A stretch of DNA of 64,000 nt, from assembly GCA_964597145.1 (NCBI GenBank), contig CAZQWH010000001.1, positions 166,441-230,440 on the forward strand. The letters are read 5' to 3'. The DNA comes from an uncultured Candidatus Saccharibacteria bacterium. Its GTDB lineage: Bacteria > Patescibacteriota > CAZHWT01. This document shows positions 1 through 62,832 of the stretch, in pieces (the first letter of the stretch is position 1; each line of letters begins with the position of its first letter). The notes below the pieces were generated by a model. It made no database searches. It saw only the letters and a list, made by a program, of their open reading frames with translations, and was not told where the DNA came from. The translations under genes were made by a program, and so were the position numbers.

Positions 1-182
1 TTTCAACTAAGGCTGGAGCAATCCCGACAGTTGTAGAGTCTATGAAAAATATGAAAGAATCTGCAATCCCAACCTGGTTGGAGCGCAAAGCTGGAGCCGG
101 TCTGGTCAAAGCAAAGCCCGAGCGAGAGCAAATTACTTTCCCCATTGAGGAACAGTTAATCGTTGAGTACTACTCTCGTTAA
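1..182 (+). CDS. rpsD: 30S ribosomal protein S4, C-terminal fragment (gene continues upstream of window)
   Basis: Frame 3 translates to ...IPTWLERKAGAGLVKAKPEREQITFPIEEQLIVEYYSR*, typical S4 C-terminus; stop TAA at 180-182; directly upstream of rpoA as in the alpha operon. Confidence 0.75.
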   Translation, partial: STKAGAIPTVVESMKNMKESAIPTWLERKAGAGLVKAKPEREQITFPIEEQLIVEYYSR

Positions 183-203
183 GAGGGCAAAGGAGCAAAA
201 GAA

Positions 204-1125
204 TATGTCATTGTTAGAATTGAAACCATCAACAACCCAAACTGAATCAACTACCACCAGCGGTACATTTATTATAGAGCCATTAATGTCTGGTTTTGGT
301 CAGACCATTGGCAATGCCCTTCGACGGGTATTATTGTCTCACTTAACCGGCGCCGCCGTAACCAAAGTTCGGATTGACGGTGTATCTCATGAATTTAGTA
401 CTATTCCTGGGGTCAAAGAAGATGTAGTCCAGCTCATTTTAGCCCTAAAGCAAGTCCGCTTTGCCATGCACAGCGACGAGCCACAAACAGTAACCTTAAG
501 CGCCAAAGGCCCAGGCGTAGTTAAAGCCAGCGACTTAAAGTTGACTGCCGGGGTAAGCGTAGCTAATCCCGACTTCGAGATTGCCTCATTAACCGATGCC
601 AAAACCACGTTAAATATTGAACTCACCGTTGAGCGTGGCCAAGGGTATCGCCCGGCTCCAACCGAGAATATGGCAATTGGGGTGATTGGCCTAGATGCCC
701 GATTTAGCCCTGTTACACGGGTTAACTATGTAGTCGAAGATACTCGTGTCGGCCAAAATACCAATCTAGATAAACTAACCGTAACTATTCAAACCGATGG
801 CTCAGTTGCAGCTGCCGATGCATTAGCCCAAGCCAGTGCAATTTTGGTCGAAGCCTTTGGCTCATTGGACGGCAAGTCCGCAGTTGAAGCTGCAGCGCAA
901 GTAGTCTCCGCTCGTGGCAGCGAAGTAGGCGTATCGGTCGATGGAGCGGTTGCCGACGAAGCTTCCCTAGAAGAGTTAAATATATCCACTCGGGTTTTAA
1001 ATAGCCTAAAGAAGGCCGGTATAGAAACTGTTGGCGAATTACGCGGCAAAGACCGGGAAGAATTATTGCAAATCAAAAATCTTGGCGAAAAATCATTGGA
1101 TGAGGTGCTCAAGAAGATTGCCTAA
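204..1125 (+). CDS. rpoA: DNA-directed RNA polymerase alpha subunit
   Basis: Supplied ORF begins at TTG 163, but the ATG at 204 is preceded by AAGGAG. N-terminal domain ...GQTIGNALRRVLLS... and C-terminal alpha-CTD ...LSTRVLNSLKKAGIETVGEL... are both present. Confidence 0.95.
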
Positions 1126-4656: not shown

Positions 4657-5217
4657 TTACACATCATAACTAAGAATATCTTGGAGTAACTTCGGAAAAC
4701 GATCGTATCCCGATGCGGTATTAAAGTGGCATGCATTGGGTATAACCTGCAGAGGCGAATCAAGCTGGTCAGCTAGATGTTGAGCAATATTCATCGGCAC
4801 AAAAGGGTCATCTGGACTATGATAAAGGGAAAAGGTCGTTTTCCGAAGCGTATCCCAATCAAATTGCTTGTCATAGAAACTATGATTAATAGCGTTCAGT
4901 CCCTCGTCGGGCAAATCTTGAATAAAACCGGCCACTAAACAGGCTACGCGAGGCTGGTTTAATTCAGCCAGTTTCTCTAATAGACTCAAGATGAACGTGG
5001 CCCCAATTGAGTGACCAATCAGCAAAGATTCCGTCGTAAAGCGGTTAAGATAAGGCTCTGCTACCCTCAGCCAAGCTTCTAGGCTTTGATTTACCGGAGA
5101 AGGAAACTGGGGAACATCAACAGCATAACCCCGCTTTTCCAGCTCGCCCTTTAACCACGGAAACCAATTTATCTCAGGTGTACCATAGGCGCCGTGGACG
5201 ATAATTGCGTTTTTTAT
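4657..5217 (-). CDS. YdeN/RBBP9-like alpha/beta serine hydrolase; probable non-canonical ATA start
   Basis: GHSIGA nucleophile elbow. Reading frame is open upstream through ...IKNAIIVHGAYGTPEINWFPWLKGELEKRGY..., the typical N-terminus of this family. There is no ATG/GTG/TTG before TTG 5025. ATA at 5215-5217 (minus strand) lies 7 nt after a GGAG. Confidence 0.5.
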   Translation of the reverse strand: MKNAIIVHGAYGTPEINWFPWLKGELEKRGYAVDVPQFPSPVNQSLEAWLRVAEPYLNRFTTESLLIGHSIGATFILSLLEKLAELNQPRVACLVAGFIQDLPDEGLNAINHSFYDKQFDWDTLRKTTFSLYHSPDDPFVPMNIAQHLADQLDSPLQVIPNACHFNTASGYDRFPKLLQDILSYDV

Positions 5218-5369
5218 TGTATTGCTCCATGTAATACATACATCATATAAAAATAGTAAGTGCCTAAATAGTGGGCTAAGCTCATGTTATTAAGTATTCA
5301 CTATTGTTTTAATAGTCAGCTATTCATTATTCAGTATTCTTTAAGCTATGCCGTTAAGTCGCAATTTGA

Positions 5370-7112
5370 CTATTGGAGGTAGTACACATTAATCGCTCCA
5401 CCTAAGATAGCCACTGGCTGGTGGTGGTCAATTACCCAACCCCAGTCATTATTCCGCTGACAAATGTGGTTGGTGATGGTCGAGCGAGAAATGGCTAAAT
5501 AGCCGGTATAACTATGATTATCAGGATCGGCGCTGGTGTAGGGTATGTGTAGATAGTCGGCTTCGGCCCGGCTAATAAAATTATCAAAAGCAATCGAGTC
5601 AATCTGCTGCTGTGATACGTAGGCAGCCAAAACCTTGGTCCCTTGACCCCAGTCGGTGTTGGAGTCATCGGCTACAAACGGAATAGCCTGCGGTTCTTGG
5701 GCGAGTATGTTGTAGTAAGGCAGGTAATACGGCCAAGCCATAAAGCTGGAGATGGCCACACTGCCAACCAAAACAATACAAGCAGTCAGGACCAGTTTGG
5801 CTTGGCGGCGCTGGTGACCGAAACGCAATAGTCGGGACAATCCGTATCCAGCGCCTATCAGTAATAAAATGTAAATTGGAAAGATATGACGGATACCAAT
5901 GTTTATCCCGGTTAATCCAGAAATAGCCAAGTAAACGACGGTTGGGACAATAAAAAAGTAGCTGGCAAAGGTTAGCCCAGGGGTGGGGGGGCGGAAGCGC
6001 CGCAGTAGATACCACCCAACGCCAGCCATAACAAGTAGTAAGGTTGGAAGTGGTGTCTTAAACAGGCTTAGGAGTGGGAAATAGTCCCAGCGACTCCCCT
6101 CAAAGCATTGTCCCAACAGATAGCCTTGGCGGTTTGGGGCAACAATATTGGCCACACCTTTAGCGTAGGTGGGTGGCAAAATCGTCAGAATGGTGCCAGC
6201 AGGCTGGAGAATATCTGGCCGCTGGGCAGGGTTTTGATCTGGGTTAAGGAGCATCAGCGTGCCGTACCCCAACCATATCAGGGCCAAGGCAATTAATCCA
6301 ATGCTAGCCACGGAAGCTATGTATTGAATCCATACTCTTGGAGAGTGAGCATGAATGTTGGCAGTGAGGTGGCGAAACGGCAGAGGCGCAATAGCTGCTA
6401 GCTGATGACGGTGATACGTTAGCCAGATCGCAGTCAAAACAGGCAAAATAATCGCCAGCATTCCCAGCGAGAATTTAGTCAGCATACCAAGACCAAGGAC
6501 AATGCCAGTAATAACTAACCAGCGGTAATTTCGGTGTTGTAAAAAATTCCAAAAGCTCGCCAGAACACCAATAAAAAACAAACTGGCACCAATATCGGTA
6601 TTAATAAGCTTGCCATGGGCAATAATGTTGGGATCAAAACTGAATAAGGCTAGCACCAAGAGCGCTGGCGTAGTCCCAAAGAGTTGTCGAGCCCACCAGA
6701 ACAACACTAAGGCCAGGCCTAGGGTGATAAACATCATCATCACTCGAGCGGCAAATAAAACTTGGTATGGGTCATCCGAACCCTGGAATAGTAGTTCCCA
6801 GCCCCATTGGTTAGCCTGGTAATAGGTGTTGTAGTCAATGTCCGTTTGTGTTGGTTGAAGATCTAAGGCTTGGTCTGGGATGTGCGGTTGGAGCCAGAGC
6901 AACGGTATCGCGGCAATGGCTTTGACTAAAAACGGGTGTTCAGGATCGAACAGCATATGGTGCTGGGTCAAAGTAGCGTACCCCGACAGTAAATGGATCG
7001 GTTCATCTGCCGTCGCCGAGTCGGTCTTGGCACTGACCACAAGTTGCACTACCAGTATGGCCAACAGGATAATCACCATAATTGGGGTAATAAAGCGGCG
7101 TAACTTAGTCAT
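5370..7112 (-). CDS. GT-C family glycosyltransferase (PMT/ArnT-like, PMT_2) with C-terminal soluble domain
   Basis: About 11 predicted TM helices. DEPIHLLSGY motif (the DE catalytic motif of GT39/GT83) in the first extracytoplasmic loop. 580 aa. Confidence 0.6.
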   Translation of the reverse strand: MTKLRRFITPIMVIILLAILVVQLVVSAKTDSATADEPIHLLSGYATLTQHHMLFDPEHPFLVKAIAAIPLLWLQPHIPDQALDLQPTQTDIDYNTYYQANQWGWELLFQGSDDPYQVLFAARVMMMFITLGLALVLFWWARQLFGTTPALLVLALFSFDPNIIAHGKLINTDIGASLFFIGVLASFWNFLQHRNYRWLVITGIVLGLGMLTKFSLGMLAIILPVLTAIWLTYHRHQLAAIAPLPFRHLTANIHAHSPRVWIQYIASVASIGLIALALIWLGYGTLMLLNPDQNPAQRPDILQPAGTILTILPPTYAKGVANIVAPNRQGYLLGQCFEGSRWDYFPLLSLFKTPLPTLLLVMAGVGWYLLRRFRPPTPGLTFASYFFIVPTVVYLAISGLTGINIGIRHIFPIYILLLIGAGYGLSRLLRFGHQRRQAKLVLTACIVLVGSVAISSFMAWPYYLPYYNILAQEPQAIPFVADDSNTDWGQGTKVLAAYVSQQQIDSIAFDNFISRAEADYLHIPYTSADPDNHSYTGYLAISRSTITNHICQRNNDWGWVIDHHQPVAILGGAINVYYLQ

Positions 7113-10842: not shown

Positions 10843-10857
10843 ACATGCTCCTTTAAT

Positions 10858-10885
10858 TTAATTATATAATAAAGTATATAAGTAA
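10858..10885. repeat. Degenerate copy of the dispersed AT-rich palindromic element (TTAATTATATAAT-AA-AGTATATAAGTAA)
   Basis: 11 of 13 matches in the second arm to the consensus seen at the five intact copies. Confidence 0.5.
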
Positions 10886-10961: not shown

Positions 10962-11594
10962 CTATCTGGCTCGAACAAAGAATGAGTGCCACTTAGTTCG
11001 AAGGCTGCGAGGTTGATAGACATAGTCAACCAGTTCAAAGCCAGATACTTCCAAAACCGGCTCAAACTCTTCGCGCGTCCAGTAAGTAAAATGACGGTAC
11101 ATTTCTTGATCATCAATGGTCTCAACCTCAATCGTTTCACCCCGACCGTCTTTGAGCGAGATAAAACCAATCCCGCCAGGCCGTTGAGTATGTCGAATCT
11201 GCTTCAGTGCTTGATAGATTCGCAGCCGTGGAATATGAAGCAGCACCGCCGATGCCCAAAACCCGTCAAATGAATTATCAAAGCTGAGGTCATAGACGCT
11301 CTGCTCAATGAAAGTGTGGCCAGGCAGAGCTTGGCGAGCTATCTCGAGCAAACCTGAAGAAATGTCAGTGCCAACATAGTGGTAGCCAAGCGCGATAAGC
11401 TCCTTAGCATCGCGGCCTCCGCCCGAACCAATTTCGAGAATTCGACCCTGAGGCAGGAGTTGGTGGAACAAATCCATTTCCAGCTCCCAATAACCCGGCT
11501 CACCATGCTCGGCAGACCACTGGTGAGCGGCCCGATCGTAGTAACCAAGTGTCAGCTCCTCCTCGGGCAGTAACGGCAGGTGATGGTTGGCCAT
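10962..11594 (-). CDS. Class I SAM-dependent methyltransferase
   Basis: Motif I ILEIGSGGGRD. ATG at 11594 preceded by AGGAGAG. Supplied ORF extends to 11627. Confidence 0.75.
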   Translation of the reverse strand: MANHHLPLLPEEELTLGYYDRAAHQWSAEHGEPGYWELEMDLFHQLLPQGRILEIGSGGGRDAKELIALGYHYVGTDISSGLLEIARQALPGHTFIEQSVYDLSFDNSFDGFWASAVLLHIPRLRIYQALKQIRHTQRPGGIGFISLKDGRGETIEVETIDDQEMYRHFTYWTREEFEPVLEVSGFELVDYVYQPRSLRTKWHSFFVRAR

Positions 11595-11779
11595 TGTATT
11601 CTCTCCTGATGAAAGGCCATAGATCAACTGCTGTGCTTATACCGAAAGTACCTGAGGTTGTCAAATGTAATAAAGACCCCATCTACTTATTGGGCTAACA
11701 ATACCCACCAGTAATATCTTCAAATTTAAATCCCCTCCTCAACCAATGTATGATAAGTTTAACTGAGATAATATACATG

Positions 11780-11805
11780 AATTATATAATTAATTATATA
11801 ATTAA
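11780..11805. repeat. Dispersed AT-rich palindromic element, copy 1 (AATTATATAATT x2 + AA), with CTGAG flank at 11763-11767
   Basis: Same core and same orientation of the upstream CTGAG(T/A)TA flank as copies at 37446, 51858, 56880 and 61029. Confidence 0.8.
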
Positions 11806-12020
11806 AATAGAGACGTAAGTATCGCTCATTAATCGGATAAACGACAAATGTCAATCATATACTAATGTAATAGTATTGCCTATCAACTGGAGTAAGGAGA
11901 GGCAGAATTAATAAACCTCAATCGAGGACGAAACTTGTTTTTGCTGCCAATGGCATAAGGCTGCCCCAAACAGATGTCTCCGAGGGTAATCTGGGAGAGA
12001 GAGTAGGTAAAAGCCAAAGA

Positions 12021-12136: not shown

Positions 12137-12859
12137 TCATGCCTCAGAGGATGATTGGTAAAGTTCGGCCCGTTTACCTCGAGATTTATTGAATAACTCG
12201 ATCCAGCGCTGCGGTGACCATCCTTTGGGTATCCAATGCACCCACAAGCCACCACAAATTTGTTGTCCTCGACCGTATGGCCACTTTGATTGATATGGTG
12301 CCCATCCACTAACGTGATCCTCGACGAAGATTTCATCAAACATGATCGATCCATCTGCCTCATAAATGACCAGGCGATCACCACCATGAATGATGCGGAG
12401 CGAGTCATACCCGTCCAAACCATCAACTTCGATAGACCAATAGGCCCCCTCAGTGCCCGTTTCGAAAAAAGCTTCGAGTTTGCCGACTGCGGCGGTGGTG
12501 TTGGCTAGCCGTTCTCTTCGTTGAGCAATAAATCCCCGATCCTCATCGGTTAGTGATTGCTGTTGAAGATAGTTAGGAGTGATGGGGGTTTTCTGGCGCT
12601 CTACATCCCATCGCTCCGCCGCTTCCTGACATATGACTGCAAATTGGACAACAGCTTGAATTGCTGTGTCAATTTTGTCTTGATCAGAAGTAAAAGCGAT
12701 ACTTTTGTCGATTTGCTCGTAGCAGTCAGAGAGTTTCTGGTACGTCTTTTTATAAAGGTCGTACAGTTCTTGCTGGACAATCAGATCATAGCGAAACAAC
12801 AAGGTGTTGAGGTTATCCCAGGCAACATCGAATTCTCGACTCTTGGTTTGGTCGCTCAT
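12137..12859 (-). CDS. Hypothetical protein (coiled-coil N-half, Trp/Gly-rich C-half)
   Basis: 240-codon ORF with good coding appearance. No recognised family. Confidence 0.45.
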   Translation of the reverse strand: MSDQTKSREFDVAWDNLNTLLFRYDLIVQQELYDLYKKTYQKLSDCYEQIDKSIAFTSDQDKIDTAIQAVVQFAVICQEAAERWDVERQKTPITPNYLQQQSLTDEDRGFIAQRRERLANTTAAVGKLEAFFETGTEGAYWSIEVDGLDGYDSLRIIHGGDRLVIYEADGSIMFDEIFVEDHVSGWAPYQSKWPYGRGQQICGGLWVHWIPKGWSPQRWIELFNKSRGKRAELYQSSSEA

Positions 12860-12978: not shown

Positions 12979-13130
12979 CTGGTCGGGGTGAGAGTAACGT
13001 TCGCCCTGCTCTCGGCTCATAGCCTTCCACTATCAAATTCGTCGGTTCCATAGTTTCAGGCTATTAAATAAACCTCCGACCGACCAATGGAAGTAATTTC
13101 CCATACTGGCGCCCCGCGCCACCTAGGTTT
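12979..13130 (-). other. Degenerate tRNA-Pro-like partial copy (D-arm/anticodon-arm-like segment, T-stem start and exact 3'-end repeat CTCTCACCCCGACCAG)
   Basis: Minus-strand reading gives GGCGC-GGG-GCGCC-AGTATGGG...GGAGGTT...CTCTCACCCCGACCAG. It lacks a 5' acceptor strand. The 16 nt 3' end is identical to that of the adjacent intact tRNA-Pro. Confidence 0.4.
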
Positions 13131-13142
13131 AGTGTAATTTAC

Positions 13143-13219
13143 TGGTCGGGGTGAGAGGACTTGAACCTCCGACCTCCAGTACCCCATACTGGCGCGCTAG
13201 CCAACTGCGCCACACCCCG
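13143..13219 (-). tRNA. tRNA-Pro (anticodon GGG)
   Basis: Reverse complement CGGGGTG-TG-GCGC-AGTTGGCTA-GCGC-G-CCAGT-ATGGGGT-ACTGG-AGGTC-GGAGG-TTCAAGT-CCTCT-CACCCCG-A-CCA folds as a cloverleaf with a 7 bp acceptor stem, GGTTCAAGTCC T-arm and encoded CCA. Confidence 0.85.
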
Positions 13220-37289: not shown

Positions 37290-37445
37290 TCAGCAAGTAA
37301 ATACCACCGGTAACCGGTGCGAGTAATCCGAGTGTTCTACGAAGTTTCCTCAAGGTGTCTGGCCTTACCAGCCTTCGTCAATAAGGTAGCAACCAACCAC
37401 CTTCCTACTAGGCATGATAGTCATAAATTACTGAGTTATTTTAGG

Positions 37446-37473
37446 TTAATTATATAATATATTATATAATTAA
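37446..37473. repeat. Dispersed AT-rich palindromic element, copy 2 (TTAATTATATAAT-AT-ATTATATAATTAA), CTGAG flank at 37431-37435
   Basis: Perfect 13 nt inverted arms. Identical to copy 4. Confidence 0.8.
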
Positions 37474-38067
37474 TTTATAAGGCTAATTTTCAATTTTAAA
37501 CGATTTTTTGTCCCAAGTATCAGTCAGGAAAAACATGCAACCCCAGAGACAAAACAGGCCTCACGTTTTAGTCTAGCGGAGTAGTGCCAATGACGAAATT
37601 TTACGTCAAAAATGGGGCTTTGTCGTCATTGCTAGTAAAGCGCAGCAATCTTGCCTAAGGTGTAATCCAAACGTAAAACTCCGATTTAATCGGGGTAGGT
37701 TGTCCCCGTCTACCGTGCTGCGCAAGCAGACAGGGCAGGCCACACGGAGCCTGCCCTGAACTTGCTAAATAGAGTGATAGGTATACAAAGTATTCAGTGC
37801 TTGCAATAAGATAGCTCTACCATGCAACTTGCTGCCGTCAGCGCAATAAATTGAATTTCATAGTTTTCGCCAGCACATAAGTGGCCACATCCTCTCTTCC
37901 TGTAGCGATCATCCCCACCAACGTCAAGCAACCTGTATCTCTAGAGTTCTAACGCAACGCGGCAGATGCACTAGACATCCAACCAGTAGAGGCAAGGGGC
38001 TAAAATGCCTAAAACCCAAGCCCCCTGCCTGGAACCTGGAATCCGAAACCTGCTATACTAATGCCCT

Positions 38068-42582: not shown

Positions 42583-42844
42583 GGCTGGCATAGCCAGTTG
42601 AATATAGGATACAAGATACATAAATGCGGGATGCGGAAGACGAAAGACAGAAGATCGAATTACGGGACTGCTGGACGATTAGATGCGAAATTTGAATATT
42701 GAAATTCAAAACAAATCCTAAGCTCGAAATCAGAAATACCAAACCCAACAACCTAAAGCCCGATATTCGATATACGATCTTCGATCTACGAGCCCCCTTC
42801 CCCGTCATTCTGGAATGAAGCCTAGCGAAGAGATAGAATCCCTT

Positions 42845-42896
42845 CTACAGTCTACAGTCTACAGTCTACAGTCTACAGTCTACAGTCTACAGTCTA
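42845..42896. repeat. Heptanucleotide tandem repeat (CTACAGT)x7.4 immediately upstream of the aspS -10
   Basis: Seven perfect 7-mers ending 9 nt before the TG-n-TATAAT extended -10 at 42903-42911. Confidence 0.9.
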
Positions 42897-48517: not shown

Positions 48518-48997
48518 GTAGTTGGCAGGGCGCATGGAGTGTGCAAGATTAGTTACTGCTAATTAGCCAGCACTTGTTGCTCTGAGTTGGTGATTTTGGT
48601 ACAATCCGAAGCGCTGTCATAGACAGCACAGTAGCTGGTATTTGGTATCTTGTATGGGTTATATAGGCGTAGTCATTCTGGACTGAAGCCAAGCGTAAGG
48701 ATAGAATCTCTATCTACTAACTACAGTCTACGAACTACTGCAAGCAAAGCTTGCTGCGGCATCACCTCAACCGTCAGGTTGAGTAACCAGCTATAATGAA
48801 GGAAGCTTAACGGATAAGAACTAAATAATTGCTGCGAGATGGTGCTACGTAGTGGTTTTCTCTATGCCAACGAGCAATAGAATAGGCAAATTATGGATGA
48901 CGAAATATAATTGAGTCCAATTGCATCACATTCCGATGGAACATCGGAAAAGGCTTTGAAAGTTGGAAGAGATAATTTAATATAGTCAGACTAATAT

Positions 48998-49071
48998 TGG
49001 CGGATGGTGAAATGGCATCACACCACTCTCTGGAAGTGGCATTCTTGGTTCGAGTCCAGGTCCGCCAGCCA
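48998..49071 (+). tRNA. tRNA-Gln (anticodon CUG)
   Basis: TGGCGGA-TG-GTGA-AATGGCA-TCAC-A-CCACT-CTCTGGA-AGTGG-CATT-CTTGG-TTCGAGT-CCAGG-TCCGCCA-G-CCA. U1-A72 and G73 are typical for bacterial tRNA-Gln. CCA is encoded. Confidence 0.85.
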
Positions 49072-49079
49072 AGCAAAGT

Positions 49080-49104
49080 GCCCAACGATTGAGTTGGGCT
49101 TTTT
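49080..49104 (+). terminator. Rho-independent terminator after tRNA-Gln (GCCCAAC-gattga-GTTGGGC-TTTTT)
   Basis: 7 bp GC-rich stem plus T5, 9 nt after the tRNA 3' end. Confidence 0.6.
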
Positions 49105-49217
49105 GCTTGCTTGTGGGCTACAGAATCGGATCAACTAGGTTCGAAGATAGGAGAATAACTATAGCTGACTGGTTCATGCTATAGTTGTGAACTACTCTCG
49201 CGGGAATTGTGGGACAA

Positions 49218-49234
49218 TTCCGCGGCGACCAGGT
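49218..49234 (+). other. Direct repeat of the tRNA-Gln 3' end (CCAGGTCCGCCAGCCA), 147 nt downstream of the tRNA
   Basis: 16 of 16 identity to tRNA-Gln positions 61-76. Preceded by a bulged hairpin CGCGGGAATTG...CAATTCCGCGG. No matching 5' half found. Confidence 0.5.
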
Positions 49235-49279
49235 CCGCCAGCCATGGTTGGTTGATTATTCTTCTGATATACTCTAAGG

Positions 49280-49699
49280 ATGCTGATATCCCAGCGAATG
49301 ACCAGAGCTCAAAAAGTTGCTGCGGCCCTAGGTGTCTTTGCCTTGCTAGTTATTTTTGTTTCCGCACTTAATCGCCAATTTATTGTAAAAACATATAGCA
49401 ACCTGGTGCTCGTAAATTCTGAGCAGTTTTTACCTTGCGAGCAACTGCCCGAAATTGAGAAAGTTGAGCAAAAGTATGAAGAAAATCAGGAGCTGCGAAT
49501 TCAGCTGCAGCAGATTTCGCCAAATCTGGCCGTATCCGTAGAGAGGGATAAAGCAGCAGATATCGGACTCGATACCTGGCAATGCCCAGGTAAGGCTGAT
49601 ATTCTGATAACTGTCCAATCAGAAGAACATCGTCAAAATATTTCGCAAATTGTTGGAAATAGTTTTGATGGCGTTCCATATAGAATTATCAATTATTAG
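49280..49699 (+). CDS. Hypothetical membrane-anchored protein
   Basis: N-terminal TM helix followed by a roughly 100 aa soluble domain. Confidence 0.4.
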   Translation: MLISQRMTRAQKVAAALGVFALLVIFVSALNRQFIVKTYSNLVLVNSEQFLPCEQLPEIEKVEQKYEENQELRIQLQQISPNLAVSVERDKAADIGLDTWQCPGKADILITVQSEEHRQNISQIVGNSFDGVPYRIINY

Positions 49700-50523: not shown

Positions 50524-51210
50524 ATGTATATTCCTCAACCTAACTTTGCAAATGGTGAAATTTATCACATTTATAACCGCGGTATTGACCGCCGGCCGAT
50601 TTTTACCAACAAGCAGGAATATCGTCGGCTAATCCAATCCTTAGCCTTTTATATCCCCACCGACACCTCCATTCGGCTCTCTCATTACTTGGTGATGAGC
50701 CAGGGCGATCAACAGAAAGTCGACCTTCGCCGCCAAATGGCTTCTCGACGCGTCTCCACGCTCTCATACTGCCTGATGCCTAATCATTTTCATCTATTAC
50801 TTCGTCAGGAGAGCGAAGGTGGTATTTCTGAGTACTTAAGACTGTTGCAAAACAGCTACGCCCGCTATTTTAATATCAAACACTCTCGGTCCGGAGCTTT
50901 GTTTGAAGGTATATTCAAAGCAGTCTATATCGAATCACAACAACAATTAGTCCATGTTTCCCGCTATATTCACCTCAATCCCTACACGGCCTACCTTGTG
51001 AAAGATCCCAGCAACCTTGCTAACTATGCCTGGTCATCATTGCGTGACTATGTCGCGCCATCGCCGACTAGTTTTATTGACACCCAGACAATTCTTAGTG
51101 ATTTTTCCAGTACCTCAGCTTACTATGACTTTGTACTTGATCAGGCCGACTACCAACGCAGTCTGGTAAAATATGGACATCTAATCCTTGAGGATGAAGT
51201 AAAAAGCTAA
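50524..51210 (+). CDS. rayT: RayT/IS200-like HUH (Y1) transposase
   Basis: YHIYNRGIDRRPIF...YCLMPNHFHLLL (HuH motif) ...NSYARYFN...HVSRYIHLNPY (Tyr-containing helix). 228 aa. Imperfect hairpins at about 50405-50433 and 50495-50518. Confidence 0.7.
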   Translation: MYIPQPNFANGEIYHIYNRGIDRRPIFTNKQEYRRLIQSLAFYIPTDTSIRLSHYLVMSQGDQQKVDLRRQMASRRVSTLSYCLMPNHFHLLLRQESEGGISEYLRLLQNSYARYFNIKHSRSGALFEGIFKAVYIESQQQLVHVSRYIHLNPYTAYLVKDPSNLANYAWSSLRDYVAPSPTSFIDTQTILSDFSSTSAYYDFVLDQADYQRSLVKYGHLILEDEVKS

Positions 51211-51794: not shown

Positions 51795-51857
51795 TAACCT
51801 ACCCAGATAATATCCTCTATCATTCCTGTTATTTATATTTATCTGAGTTAATTACAT

Positions 51858-51885
51858 TTAATTATATAATTTATTATATAATTAA
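51858..51885. repeat. Dispersed AT-rich palindromic element, copy 3 (TTAATTATATAAT-TT-ATTATATAATTAA), CTGAG flank at 51843-51847
   Basis: Perfect inverted arms. 125 nt upstream of the ogt start. Confidence 0.8.
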
Positions 51886-52010
51886 ATAATCACAATTTGT
51901 GACTAAAATACCAAAGTATCACAATGAGCTGAGTAAAGGTTTGTGGTAAGGTTGATCCAGATTACCTGGCTAATCAGGAGGAGGGACTATTCGGCTTATG
52001 AGGCTTATAG

Positions 52011-56739: not shown

Positions 56740-56879
56740 GCAAGTAGGCTTTCAGCGGTCAAATGGACAAAGTTGGCTTCGAAAGCTACGCAGCAGATAA
56801 TTACCCGGCCAGGAATTCATAATACAGTGAATTCATAGTGCAACCTATGATTGCAATAATTTACAGAGATAAAATAAGT

Positions 56880-56907
56880 TAATTATATAATATATTATAT
56901 AATTAAT
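56880..56907. repeat. Dispersed AT-rich palindromic element, copy 4 (TTAATTATATAAT-AT-ATTATATAATTAA), CAGAG flank at 56865-56869
   Basis: Identical 28-mer to copy 2. Ends 17 nt before the NUDIX stop codon. Confidence 0.8.
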
Positions 56908-56924
56908 GAGTATCCCATCTTTTG

Positions 56925-60978: not shown

Positions 60979-61028
60979 AGAACCATATTGATATACATGC
61001 TATCGTAAATTATCTGAGTTATTTTATA

Positions 61029-61056
61029 TTAATTATATAATAAATTATATAATTAA
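61029..61056. repeat. Dispersed AT-rich palindromic element, copy 5 (TTAATTATATAAT-AA-ATTATATAATTAA), CTGAG flank at 61014-61018
   Basis: Perfect inverted arms. Flank TATCTGAGTTATTTTA is identical to the copy 2 flank. Confidence 0.8.
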
Positions 61057-61287
61057 TTTTTTACAAATCTGGCTCCTATCCGTAGAGGATTTTTTGCTCC
61101 TAACATTGGACTAACCTTGATAGGGTGTTGGTGCTCTTAGGTGGTAGGTGAAGGTTGCTTGAAAAAAATAATACGAAAAAAATCAGGCTATAAAAAACTC
61201 AAGTCGAAGAAATGACTTCGATGAGGCCGAGTTTGGTACGTAAGGTAATGCAAAGCTCGCAAAATTAGTGCCATACATTCTAAGGAT

Positions 61288-61966: not shown

Positions 61967-62832
61967 GTGCATTATTTGTTGGCAGCTGTTCTCTCTAACC
62001 TTTCGTACGCTATAGCAGACAATACAAATGGCGTGGTGGCGCAGAAAAATAAACCGCTATCTGTTGCTATATGGGCTGCAATATTTGCAGTAGTGATATT
62101 TTTTATCCCCTTGGTCATATTTTTTCAACATGAAATTGCGAGGTTAACCTTTGAAAGTGTCTTGTGGATTCTGGGCACAGGAGTGTTGGTTGCTCTGGGG
62201 TATCTTTGCTTCATTAGTGGTATGAATAAAGGGAGCGTGACGTTAACCGGGGTAATTGGAGGCTCTTTCCCTGCAGTCACAACGGTGATTGCACTGCTGT
62301 TGTTCCAAGAACAGGTTTCTCTATTTCAAATATTGGCTATCCTGGTGATAATTTTGGGTATTATTTTATCTTCGATGCAAGGCAATCCTTCTACATTACT
62401 GAGGGATATAAAATCTCCATCCCTTCTATTCGCACTTGGAGCCTTCTTTTTGTGGGGTTTGTATTTTGCGTTAATTCGAATTCCCGTGGAGCAGGTTGGT
62501 TGGTTCCTGCCACAATATGGATCGAGTGTTATAGGCATTCCATTATACATTCTTATTGCTCAACTATCTGGTGAAAGCAGGTGATGTCAAAGCCCCAATT
62601 GCCAATTATAATCGCGGTCGCATCTTCTTTGCAGGTAGCTGGCAGTATGCTGTTTAATTACGCTATTAGCCAGGGTCCAACCACAATTGTAGCTCCAATT
62701 GCCGGAAGTTCGCCGGCGGTTTTTGTTGTTATTGCTCATTTTATCTTTAAAGAGCGCTTAAATACCTACCAAAATGTCGGCATCATAACGGCATTGGCCG
62801 GTATCATTGGATTGTCATTGCTGAGCGCTTAA
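61967..62832 (+). CDS. EamA/DMT-family transporter, apparently split into two ORFs (61967..62584 and 62581..62832) in different frames
   Basis: ORF1 carries about 6 TM helices of an EamA repeat pair. ORF2 carries the last 3 TM helices and begins GTGATG, overlapping the ORF1 stop. Together they make a typical ~288 aa EamA protein. Confidence 0.5.

Follow-up and report, generated by a model that had tools for sequence, protein, structure and literature searches.

The tRNA-Gln locus and its direct repeat

The window, by which we mean the whole 64-kb stretch of DNA that was analysed, belongs to an uncultured lineage related to Saccharimonadia/Patescibacteria, as determined by searches with its GluRS and RecA proteins. 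GluRS was 71% identical to that of a 'Candidatus Saccharibacteria' MAG, and RecA was 77-78% identical to that of Candidatus Saccharimonadales. The part from 0 to 48.5 kb carries housekeeping genes, encoding RpoA, L17, S9, RecA, RecX, RNase Y, MiaA, SecDF, RecJ, RelA/SpoT, AspRS and GluRS. A tRNA-Gln gene follows, and the features at and beyond it are:

48998-49071, plus strand: tRNA-Gln(CUG), 74 nt, CCA encoded (ARAGORN; Rfam RF00005, 54.8 bits)
49056-49071, plus strand: direct repeat copy 1, the final 16 nt of tRNA-Gln, from the T-stem 3' strand through CCA
49072-49228, plus strand: non-coding spacer of 157 nt, read as an inserted remnant
49080-49104, plus strand: strong intrinsic terminator of tRNA-Gln, a 7-bp GC-rich stem (49080-49099) followed by TTTTT
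49157-49186, plus strand: perfect 9-bp hairpin, AACTATAGC ... GCTATAGTT
49199-49224, plus strand: bulged GC hairpin, CGCGGGAATTG-TGGGA-CAATTCCGCG
49229-49244, plus strand: direct repeat copy 2, an exact 16-mer of the tRNA-Gln end
49238-49251, plus strand: near-palindrome CCAGCCATGGTTGG, which straddles the end of copy 2 and is also a weak terminator-like hairpin
49280-49699, plus strand: first ORF past copy 2, 139 aa (133 aa if started at the ATG at 49298); no known homologue

The repeated 16-mer, CCAGGTCCGCCAGCCA, corresponds to canonical tRNA positions 61-76 and comprises the 3' strands of the T-stem and acceptor stem, the discriminator G and the encoded CCA. It occurs as two exact copies with a start-to-start distance of 173 nt, and no third copy was found in the 64-kb window at up to 3 mismatches; in shuffled sequence, 0.01 matches per window are expected by chance at up to 2 mismatches. 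The initial annotation was correct in recognizing an exact repeat of the tRNA end, but placed its second copy 10 nt too low, at 49219-49234. Since copy 2 really occupies 49229-49244, an end at 49234 cuts through the repeat, and the spacer, given there as 147 nt, measures 157 nt. The edges of the 16-mer are sharp and end exactly at CCA, and local and global alignments with shuffles revealed no homology around the repeat beyond the 16 nt, which bears out the att-like scar geometry originally proposed. The tRNA terminator (stem and T-run) and the bulged GC hairpin that had been described between the repeats were both found. The region 48900-49400 was 100% identical in three Logan assemblies from different runs (L005-L007), and the repeat is therefore not an assembly artefact, a source that was ruled out by the agreement of these independent assemblies.

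The spacer between the repeats

Apart from the 16-mer, the spacer showed no significant similarity to tRNA-Gln (60 of 300 shuffles scored as well), and comparison of the regions flanking the tRNA-Gln repeat with the flanks of relatives L010 and L012 gave nothing significant in either direction. The bulged GC hairpin is present once in the 64 kb, even when 3 mismatches are allowed, and viral and metagenome contigs gave no match to it. Using an exact-pattern scan, zero matches to the spacer arms were obtained in viral contigs and JGI metagenomes, and zero matches to the tRNA-Gln 3' end in viral contigs.

The predicted RNA fold of the spacer was well below that of shuffled sequences, with z = -5.0 for 49072-49260 (which includes copy 2 and 16 nt beyond it) and z = -3.55 for 49105-49244 (terminator excluded, copy 2 included). 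The structure predicted is a four-way junction in which the 16-mer forms part of the closing stem. An Rfam search at permissive thresholds (E up to 1) matched only the tRNAs and assigned the spacer to no family, and the interval 49100-49280 showed no promoter-like site. The ORF that begins beyond copy 2 had no Pfam or PHROG match, and its sole match among 5.8 billion proteins was itself.

A parallel structure at tRNA-Pro

The only other tRNA gene of the window, which is encoded on the minus strand, is also followed by a copy of its own 3' end:

13143-13219, minus strand: tRNA-Pro(GGG)
12980-12994, minus strand: exact copy of the last 15 nt of tRNA-Pro (16 with the following G)
within 12980-13219, minus strand: tRNA-Pro spacer of 147/148 nt, a 5'-truncated pseudo-tRNA-Pro

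In this spacer, blocks at 13116-13122, 13100-13112 and 13071-13081 match the tRNA exactly. They correspond to tRNA positions 7-13, 25-37 and 46-56 in the correct order, which makes the spacer a 5'-truncated pseudo-tRNA; a further 76 nt lie at the position of the T-loop (12995-13070). No similarity was detected between the tRNA-Gln spacer and the tRNA-Pro spacer, including the inserts at the T-loop position, and so the two do not form a shared sequence family. As a control, 65 unrelated metagenome contigs, which had been fetched by a tRNA-Gln D-arm pattern, were found to have a 3'-anchored repeat at 1 of their ~120 tRNAs, and two such repeats at the two tRNAs of the window are therefore unusual. 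The sole control case was a tRNA-Gly (L030), whose repeat brackets 845 bp with one unknown ORF.

The tRNA-Pro gene is divergent from recA in relatives as well. In the closest relative, L085 (RecA 93% identical), there is no downstream tRNA-Pro unit. The window flank past the second Pro repeat aligned to the DNA that follows the tRNA in L085 with a score of 11.5 (shuffled controls: -5.3 +/- 4.7, with 0 of 1000 as good), whereas the flank past the first repeat aligned much more poorly (35 of 1000 shuffles as good). In a second species (RecA 88%), in the assemblies L091, L092 and L094, the DNA directly after tRNA-Pro lacks any tRNA-derived unit and reads as the native flank, and a homologue of a 240-aa ORF of the window follows. 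Assembly L093 (ERZ27320629) has a RecA protein identical to that of these three and different DNA right after CCAG, where a 27-nt leader, a pseudo-tRNA-Pro and the leader again (1-205, minus strand) run up to the end of the contig as a tandem with a 51-nt direct repeat and a period of 100 nt. The Pro unit of the window and this ~100-nt unit were identical in 81 of 90 aligned columns (score 40.9 against 22.6 +/- 2.8; 0 of 1000 shuffles as good), and the two share derived features that are absent from tRNA-Pro itself. The flanks of the relatives, the presence or absence of the unit among L091-L094 and the homology with L093 together therefore identify the Pro unit as an insertion at the tRNA end, with the ancestral flank starting again past the second repeat. 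Both the insertion and its strain-level presence or absence were observed directly at this gene: the unit varies between near-identical strains and is common to two species. The organism of L009 and L085 is that of ENA ERZ27321039 and ERZ27320636.

The 240-aa ORF of the window (12137-12859, minus strand) has a ribosome binding site and first codons that resemble those of the methyltransferase gene of L085 (685-802). In L085 that gene lies directly after tRNA-Pro; in the window a methyltransferase gene is found 1.3 kb further on (10962-11627). This displacement suggests a further insertion or rearrangement near the tRNA-Pro of the window.

Gene content downstream of tRNA-Gln

Relatives L001, L010 and L012 matched the window over 36-48.5 kb, and the gltX-tRNA-Gln linkage was kept in L010, L011 and L012; the relatives compared at this locus are distant, with GluRS at most 85% identical overall and 70-81% identical in the three that retain tRNA-Gln. 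Almost nothing of 49.2-64 kb was matched in L001, L010 and L012, the exception being a weak OmdA match. In L012, which keeps the backbone from recA to gltX and tRNA-Gln, the 10 kb past the tRNA contains different small genes, and no repeat follows its tRNA-Gln. Compared with these distant relatives, conserved DNA gives way to variable DNA at the tRNA-Gln gene.

Pfam searches of 49.2-64 kb identified a Y1 transposase, an Imm5-like protein, Ogt, MazEF, NUDIX, two ICMT/PEMT and two OmdA/YdeI proteins, DUF1801, one hydrolase, RibD_C, a SnoaL-like protein and a split EamA transporter. This agrees with the accessory gene content first listed for the region, except that there is only one hydrolase and not two. 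A molybdopterin oxidoreductase fused to cytochrome b is also carried in 49-64 kb. The EamA transporter gene (61967-62832) is split into overlapping ORFs of 205 aa and 83 aa, probably due to a frameshift, and the same arrangement was seen in the independent assemblies L082-L084.

No integrase or recombinase Pfam domain was found in any ORF of 150 aa or more in 1-48 kb or in the main ORFs of at least 81 aa in 49-64 kb. Contig L082, which is from the same strain and extends to ~69.5 kb (5.5 kb past the window), contained neither a third repeat nor an integrase. Leave-one-out tetranucleotide distances were 1.13-1.36 for 50-64 kb compared with 1.04-1.41 for core blocks, and GC content was 0.41-0.48 compared with 0.42-0.50. 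A composition like that of the core had been named beforehand as one half of the evidence that would refute an island, and 50-64 kb falls inside the core range. As for the island boundary that had been placed at this point, core synteny does end at tRNA-Gln and miscellaneous genes do follow, but the repeats enclose only 157 bp. A tRNA gene marks the boundary, while a distal repeat bracketing cargo and a recombinase (both sought out to ~69.5 kb) and a distinct composition were not found, and for these reasons a discrete integrated island is not demonstrated. The 'core' part of the window has a scar of the same type beside tRNA-Pro, and such a scar alone is thus no mark of a large island. Gradual turnover at a hotspot fits 49.2-64 kb better than one island does.

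Other repeats near the tRNA genes

Exact copies of tRNA 5' ends, starting from tRNA position 1, were observed in three relatives: L085 954-973 (20 nt), L010 5901-5912 (12 nt) and L050 1360-1382 (23 nt). They are located 57-130 nt upstream of an intact tRNA-Pro (L085), tRNA-Gln (L010) and tRNA-Arg (L050), and mirror the 3' repeats. Upstream of tRNA-Gln in the window, the segment 48831-48869 is conserved with L010 5899-5937 (28 of 39 positions identical; 5 of 1000 shuffles as good), and it starts with a 12-mer, TGCGAGATGGTG (48833-48844), that resembles the tRNA-Gln 5' end. CTAC-N-AACTACTG motifs, with a small hairpin after each, also occur upstream of tRNA-Gln, at 48713-48737 in the window and at 5740-5790, 5860-5900 and 6000-6040 in L010.

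Intergenic regions also carry a repeat family of ~74 nt, whose members share a conserved CTGAG(T/A)TA motif ahead of an AT palindrome, TTAATTATATAAT-N3-ATTATATAATTAA. The window has six of them (10852-10885, 11742-11815, 37410-37483, 51822-51895, 56843-56916 and 60993-61066), with the palindromes at 10852, 11772, 37440, 51852, 56873 and 61023. Three palindromes do lie in 49-64 kb, as was originally reported, but the total is six rather than five, with three outside that region. A similar repeat is located downstream of tRNA-Gln in L010, at about 6225-6275. The repeat may be a bidirectional promoter/operator or a small repeat element.

The AspRS gene is preceded by ~7.5 tandem copies of the 7-mer TCTACAG (42844-42896), to which the CTAC-N-AACTACTG motifs are related. 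In L086, tRNA-Pro is preceded by a tandem array of the heptamer TAATCGT and followed by three copies of a ~120-nt repeat (5200-5610, minus strand; 5691-5760), which further indicates that the flanks of tRNA genes in this clade are prone to repeats.

Origin of the tRNA-Gln structure

What is seen at tRNA-Gln is an exact repeat with sharp edges, no recombinase nearby, and a loss of synteny at the gene. We give an even chance to the reading that this is a 173-bp unit inserted at the 3' end of the tRNA, with an att-like scar around a non-coding remnant. The unit would consist of the 157-bp spacer and one 16-bp copy of the tRNA end, and the tRNA would be left intact. The most likely route would be recombination at the tRNA end, similar to that of integrative elements, in which the incoming DNA brings a copy of the tRNA 3' end, so that the gene is rebuilt and its original end displaced downstream. 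The 16-mer within the tRNA would then be attL-like and the downstream 16-mer attR-like. The present content between them, a terminator that would now be serving the tRNA and two hairpins, with no genes, could be a remnant or a miniature non-autonomous unit. The predicted empty site has tRNA-Gln directly joined to TGGTTGGTTGATT, and the predicted circular junction is ...CAATTCCGCGGCGA-CCAGGTCCGCCAGCCA-AGCAAAGTGCCC....

Insertion at tRNA-Gln is supported by the same architecture at tRNA-Pro, with its 15+1-nt repeat and its spacer of 147/148 nt. We infer that a site-specific recombinase made the Gln unit. A mechanism shared by the Gln and Pro cases is suggested by analogy, since the two spacers have no sequence in common. 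If the 3' flank of the tRNA is a site of recurrent gain and loss in this lineage, this would be why the conserved core stops there and lineage-specific genes follow. Several findings count against the insertion reading. No integrase was found in the ORFs scanned in the window or in the 5.5-kb extension, no parent phage or element with the spacer arms was present in the viral or metagenome collections, and a 157-bp remnant is far smaller than the CIMEs that have been described. The 5'-end copies upstream of tRNAs in L085, L010 and L050 are more easily explained by local duplication than by classical 3'-end integration, and the tandem in L093 could be produced by unequal crossing-over too.

It is possible, if rather unlikely, that the structures are miniature gene-less units of ~100-170 bp at tRNA termini that are mobilised in trans, or else a conserved functional tRNA-like trailer RNA. 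Such units would insert at the tRNA terminus and rebuild it; strains would differ by their gain, loss and tandem amplification, and different species would have them in common. With the recombinase encoded elsewhere, they would be the counterpart of MITEs in the integrase world, and the Gln unit and the Pro units of the window and L093 would be members.

A somewhat doubtful origin, though one deserving serious weight, is local partial tandem duplication, in which the tRNA, or its 3' part and trailer, was copied by slippage or unequal crossing-over and the second copy then decayed by indels except for its unchanged 3' end, with no mobile element involved. The ordered exact tRNA blocks of the Pro spacer, the true tandem repeat of 100-nt period in L093 and the upstream 5'-end copies in L085, L010 and L050, which look like partial tandem duplications, are all consistent with it, as is the richness of the intergenic regions of this lineage in tandem repeats (in the window and in L086). 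The Gln spacer fits it poorly, having no tRNA similarity past the 16-mer, and it is unlikely under uniform decay that 58 nt would be fully erased with 16 of 16 kept. At tRNA-Pro, the DNA after CCAG in L093 differs from the flank in assemblies with identical RecA and is therefore not a local copy, and two species have the unit at ~90% identity although their intergenic flanks can hardly be aligned. Another view, which we consider very improbable, is that the spacer and second 16-mer are a functional structured RNA or regulatory leader, such as a tRNA-like element 5' of the ORF, in which selection would keep the 16-mer. Its appeal lies in the fold, so far below that of shuffled sequences and closed through the 16-mer, and in the conservation of the Pro unit across species far above that of neighbouring intergenic DNA. 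However, the strong terminator cuts the spacer off from the tRNA transcript, and neither a promoter-like site nor an Rfam family was found for it. The Gln and Pro spacers share no sequence and no obvious common fold, and the unit is absent from relatives and from the identical-RecA sisters of the L093 carrier, strains in which it is dispensable.

The remaining explanation, that a large island of 49.2-64+ kb was integrated at tRNA-Gln with the second 16-mer as its proximal att site and the distal repeat and integrase outside the window, seems to us quite improbable. Synteny with relatives does stop at tRNA-Gln, the genes downstream include a toxin-antitoxin pair, the Y1 transposase, the immunity-like protein, Ogt, NUDIX and paralogous small genes, and the ORF adjacent to the repeat has no homologue. 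Integrases usually adjoin the tRNA-proximal att site, and there is none here; nor was an integrase or a third repeat found to ~69.5 kb, and the composition is indistinguishable from that of the core. The different gene miscellany after tRNA-Gln in L012, with no repeat, fits gradual turnover. A CRISPR-transposon homing spacer, a bridge-RNA/omega-RNA guide and a retroviral-type primer-binding site were also considered and rejected, as no matching protein genes were present and the 157-bp same-strand geometry is unfit for them.

Implications for annotation

The tRNA-Gln scar flags a plasticity hotspot in an uncultured bacterial lineage with small genomes. In annotating the window, neither the second 16-mer nor the pseudo-copy of tRNA-Pro should be entered as a gene, and present evidence gives no ground for labelling 49.2-64 kb as an integrated island. 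The pattern deserves attention in that it involves both tRNAs of the window, a strain-level presence or absence in a relative, and a 100-bp unit conserved across species. If these are indeed mini-elements mobilised in trans, they would represent an unusually small class of site-specific insertions and could serve as a strain-typing marker.

Comparison with known systems

The Y1 (IS200-like) transposase gene located 1.3 kb downstream (50524-51210) and the GC-rich bulged hairpin of the spacer recall the REP/RayT system (REPtron). Unlike REP sequences, the hairpin has a single occurrence in 64 kb, away from the borders of the transposase gene, and no inverted repeats matching it were found around 50524-51210. 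The hairpin was therefore ruled out as a REP of the nearby transposase on account of its single copy in the window. To our knowledge, REP elements do not duplicate tRNA ends.

Like tRNA pseudogenes that arise by tandem duplication, the Pro unit is a 5'-truncated copy of tRNA-Pro with altered loops. It differs from them in that its L093 version starts with DNA that is not local and in that more than one species has it, and the Gln unit differs in having no tRNA similarity beyond the 16-mer.

Partial tRNA copies are common; they are the usual product of element integration, which is the usual source of tRNA gene fragments (PMC9897764). As in islands and prophages integrated at tRNA genes, the tRNA at tRNA-Gln is complete and its 3' part, which begins in the T-arm and extends to the gene end, is copied exactly, with sharp borders. 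The cases described enclose 9-23 kb with an integrase, whereas the repeats at tRNA-Gln enclose 157 bp and no gene, and the ORFs scanned within about 20 kb encode no integrase.

Known CIMEs span kilobases and can be recognised as derivatives of a related ICE. The units described here are 100-173 bp, and no parent element was present in the collections searched, so that derivation from an autonomous element was not seen. The likeness lies in the arrangement. By definition, CIMEs are elements that have decayed until just attL and attR are retained, and they frequently form tandem accretions (PMC5704250); at tRNA-Gln, att-like repeats corresponding to attL and attR flank DNA that lacks recombination and integration genes, and at tRNA-Pro the tandem in L093 resembles an accretion. 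Set beside these systems, we regard the tRNA-Gln structure as known biology, an ordinary trace of the insertion of DNA at a tRNA gene, which is mildly unusual in that tiny partial tRNA copies recur often in this Saccharimonadia-like lineage.
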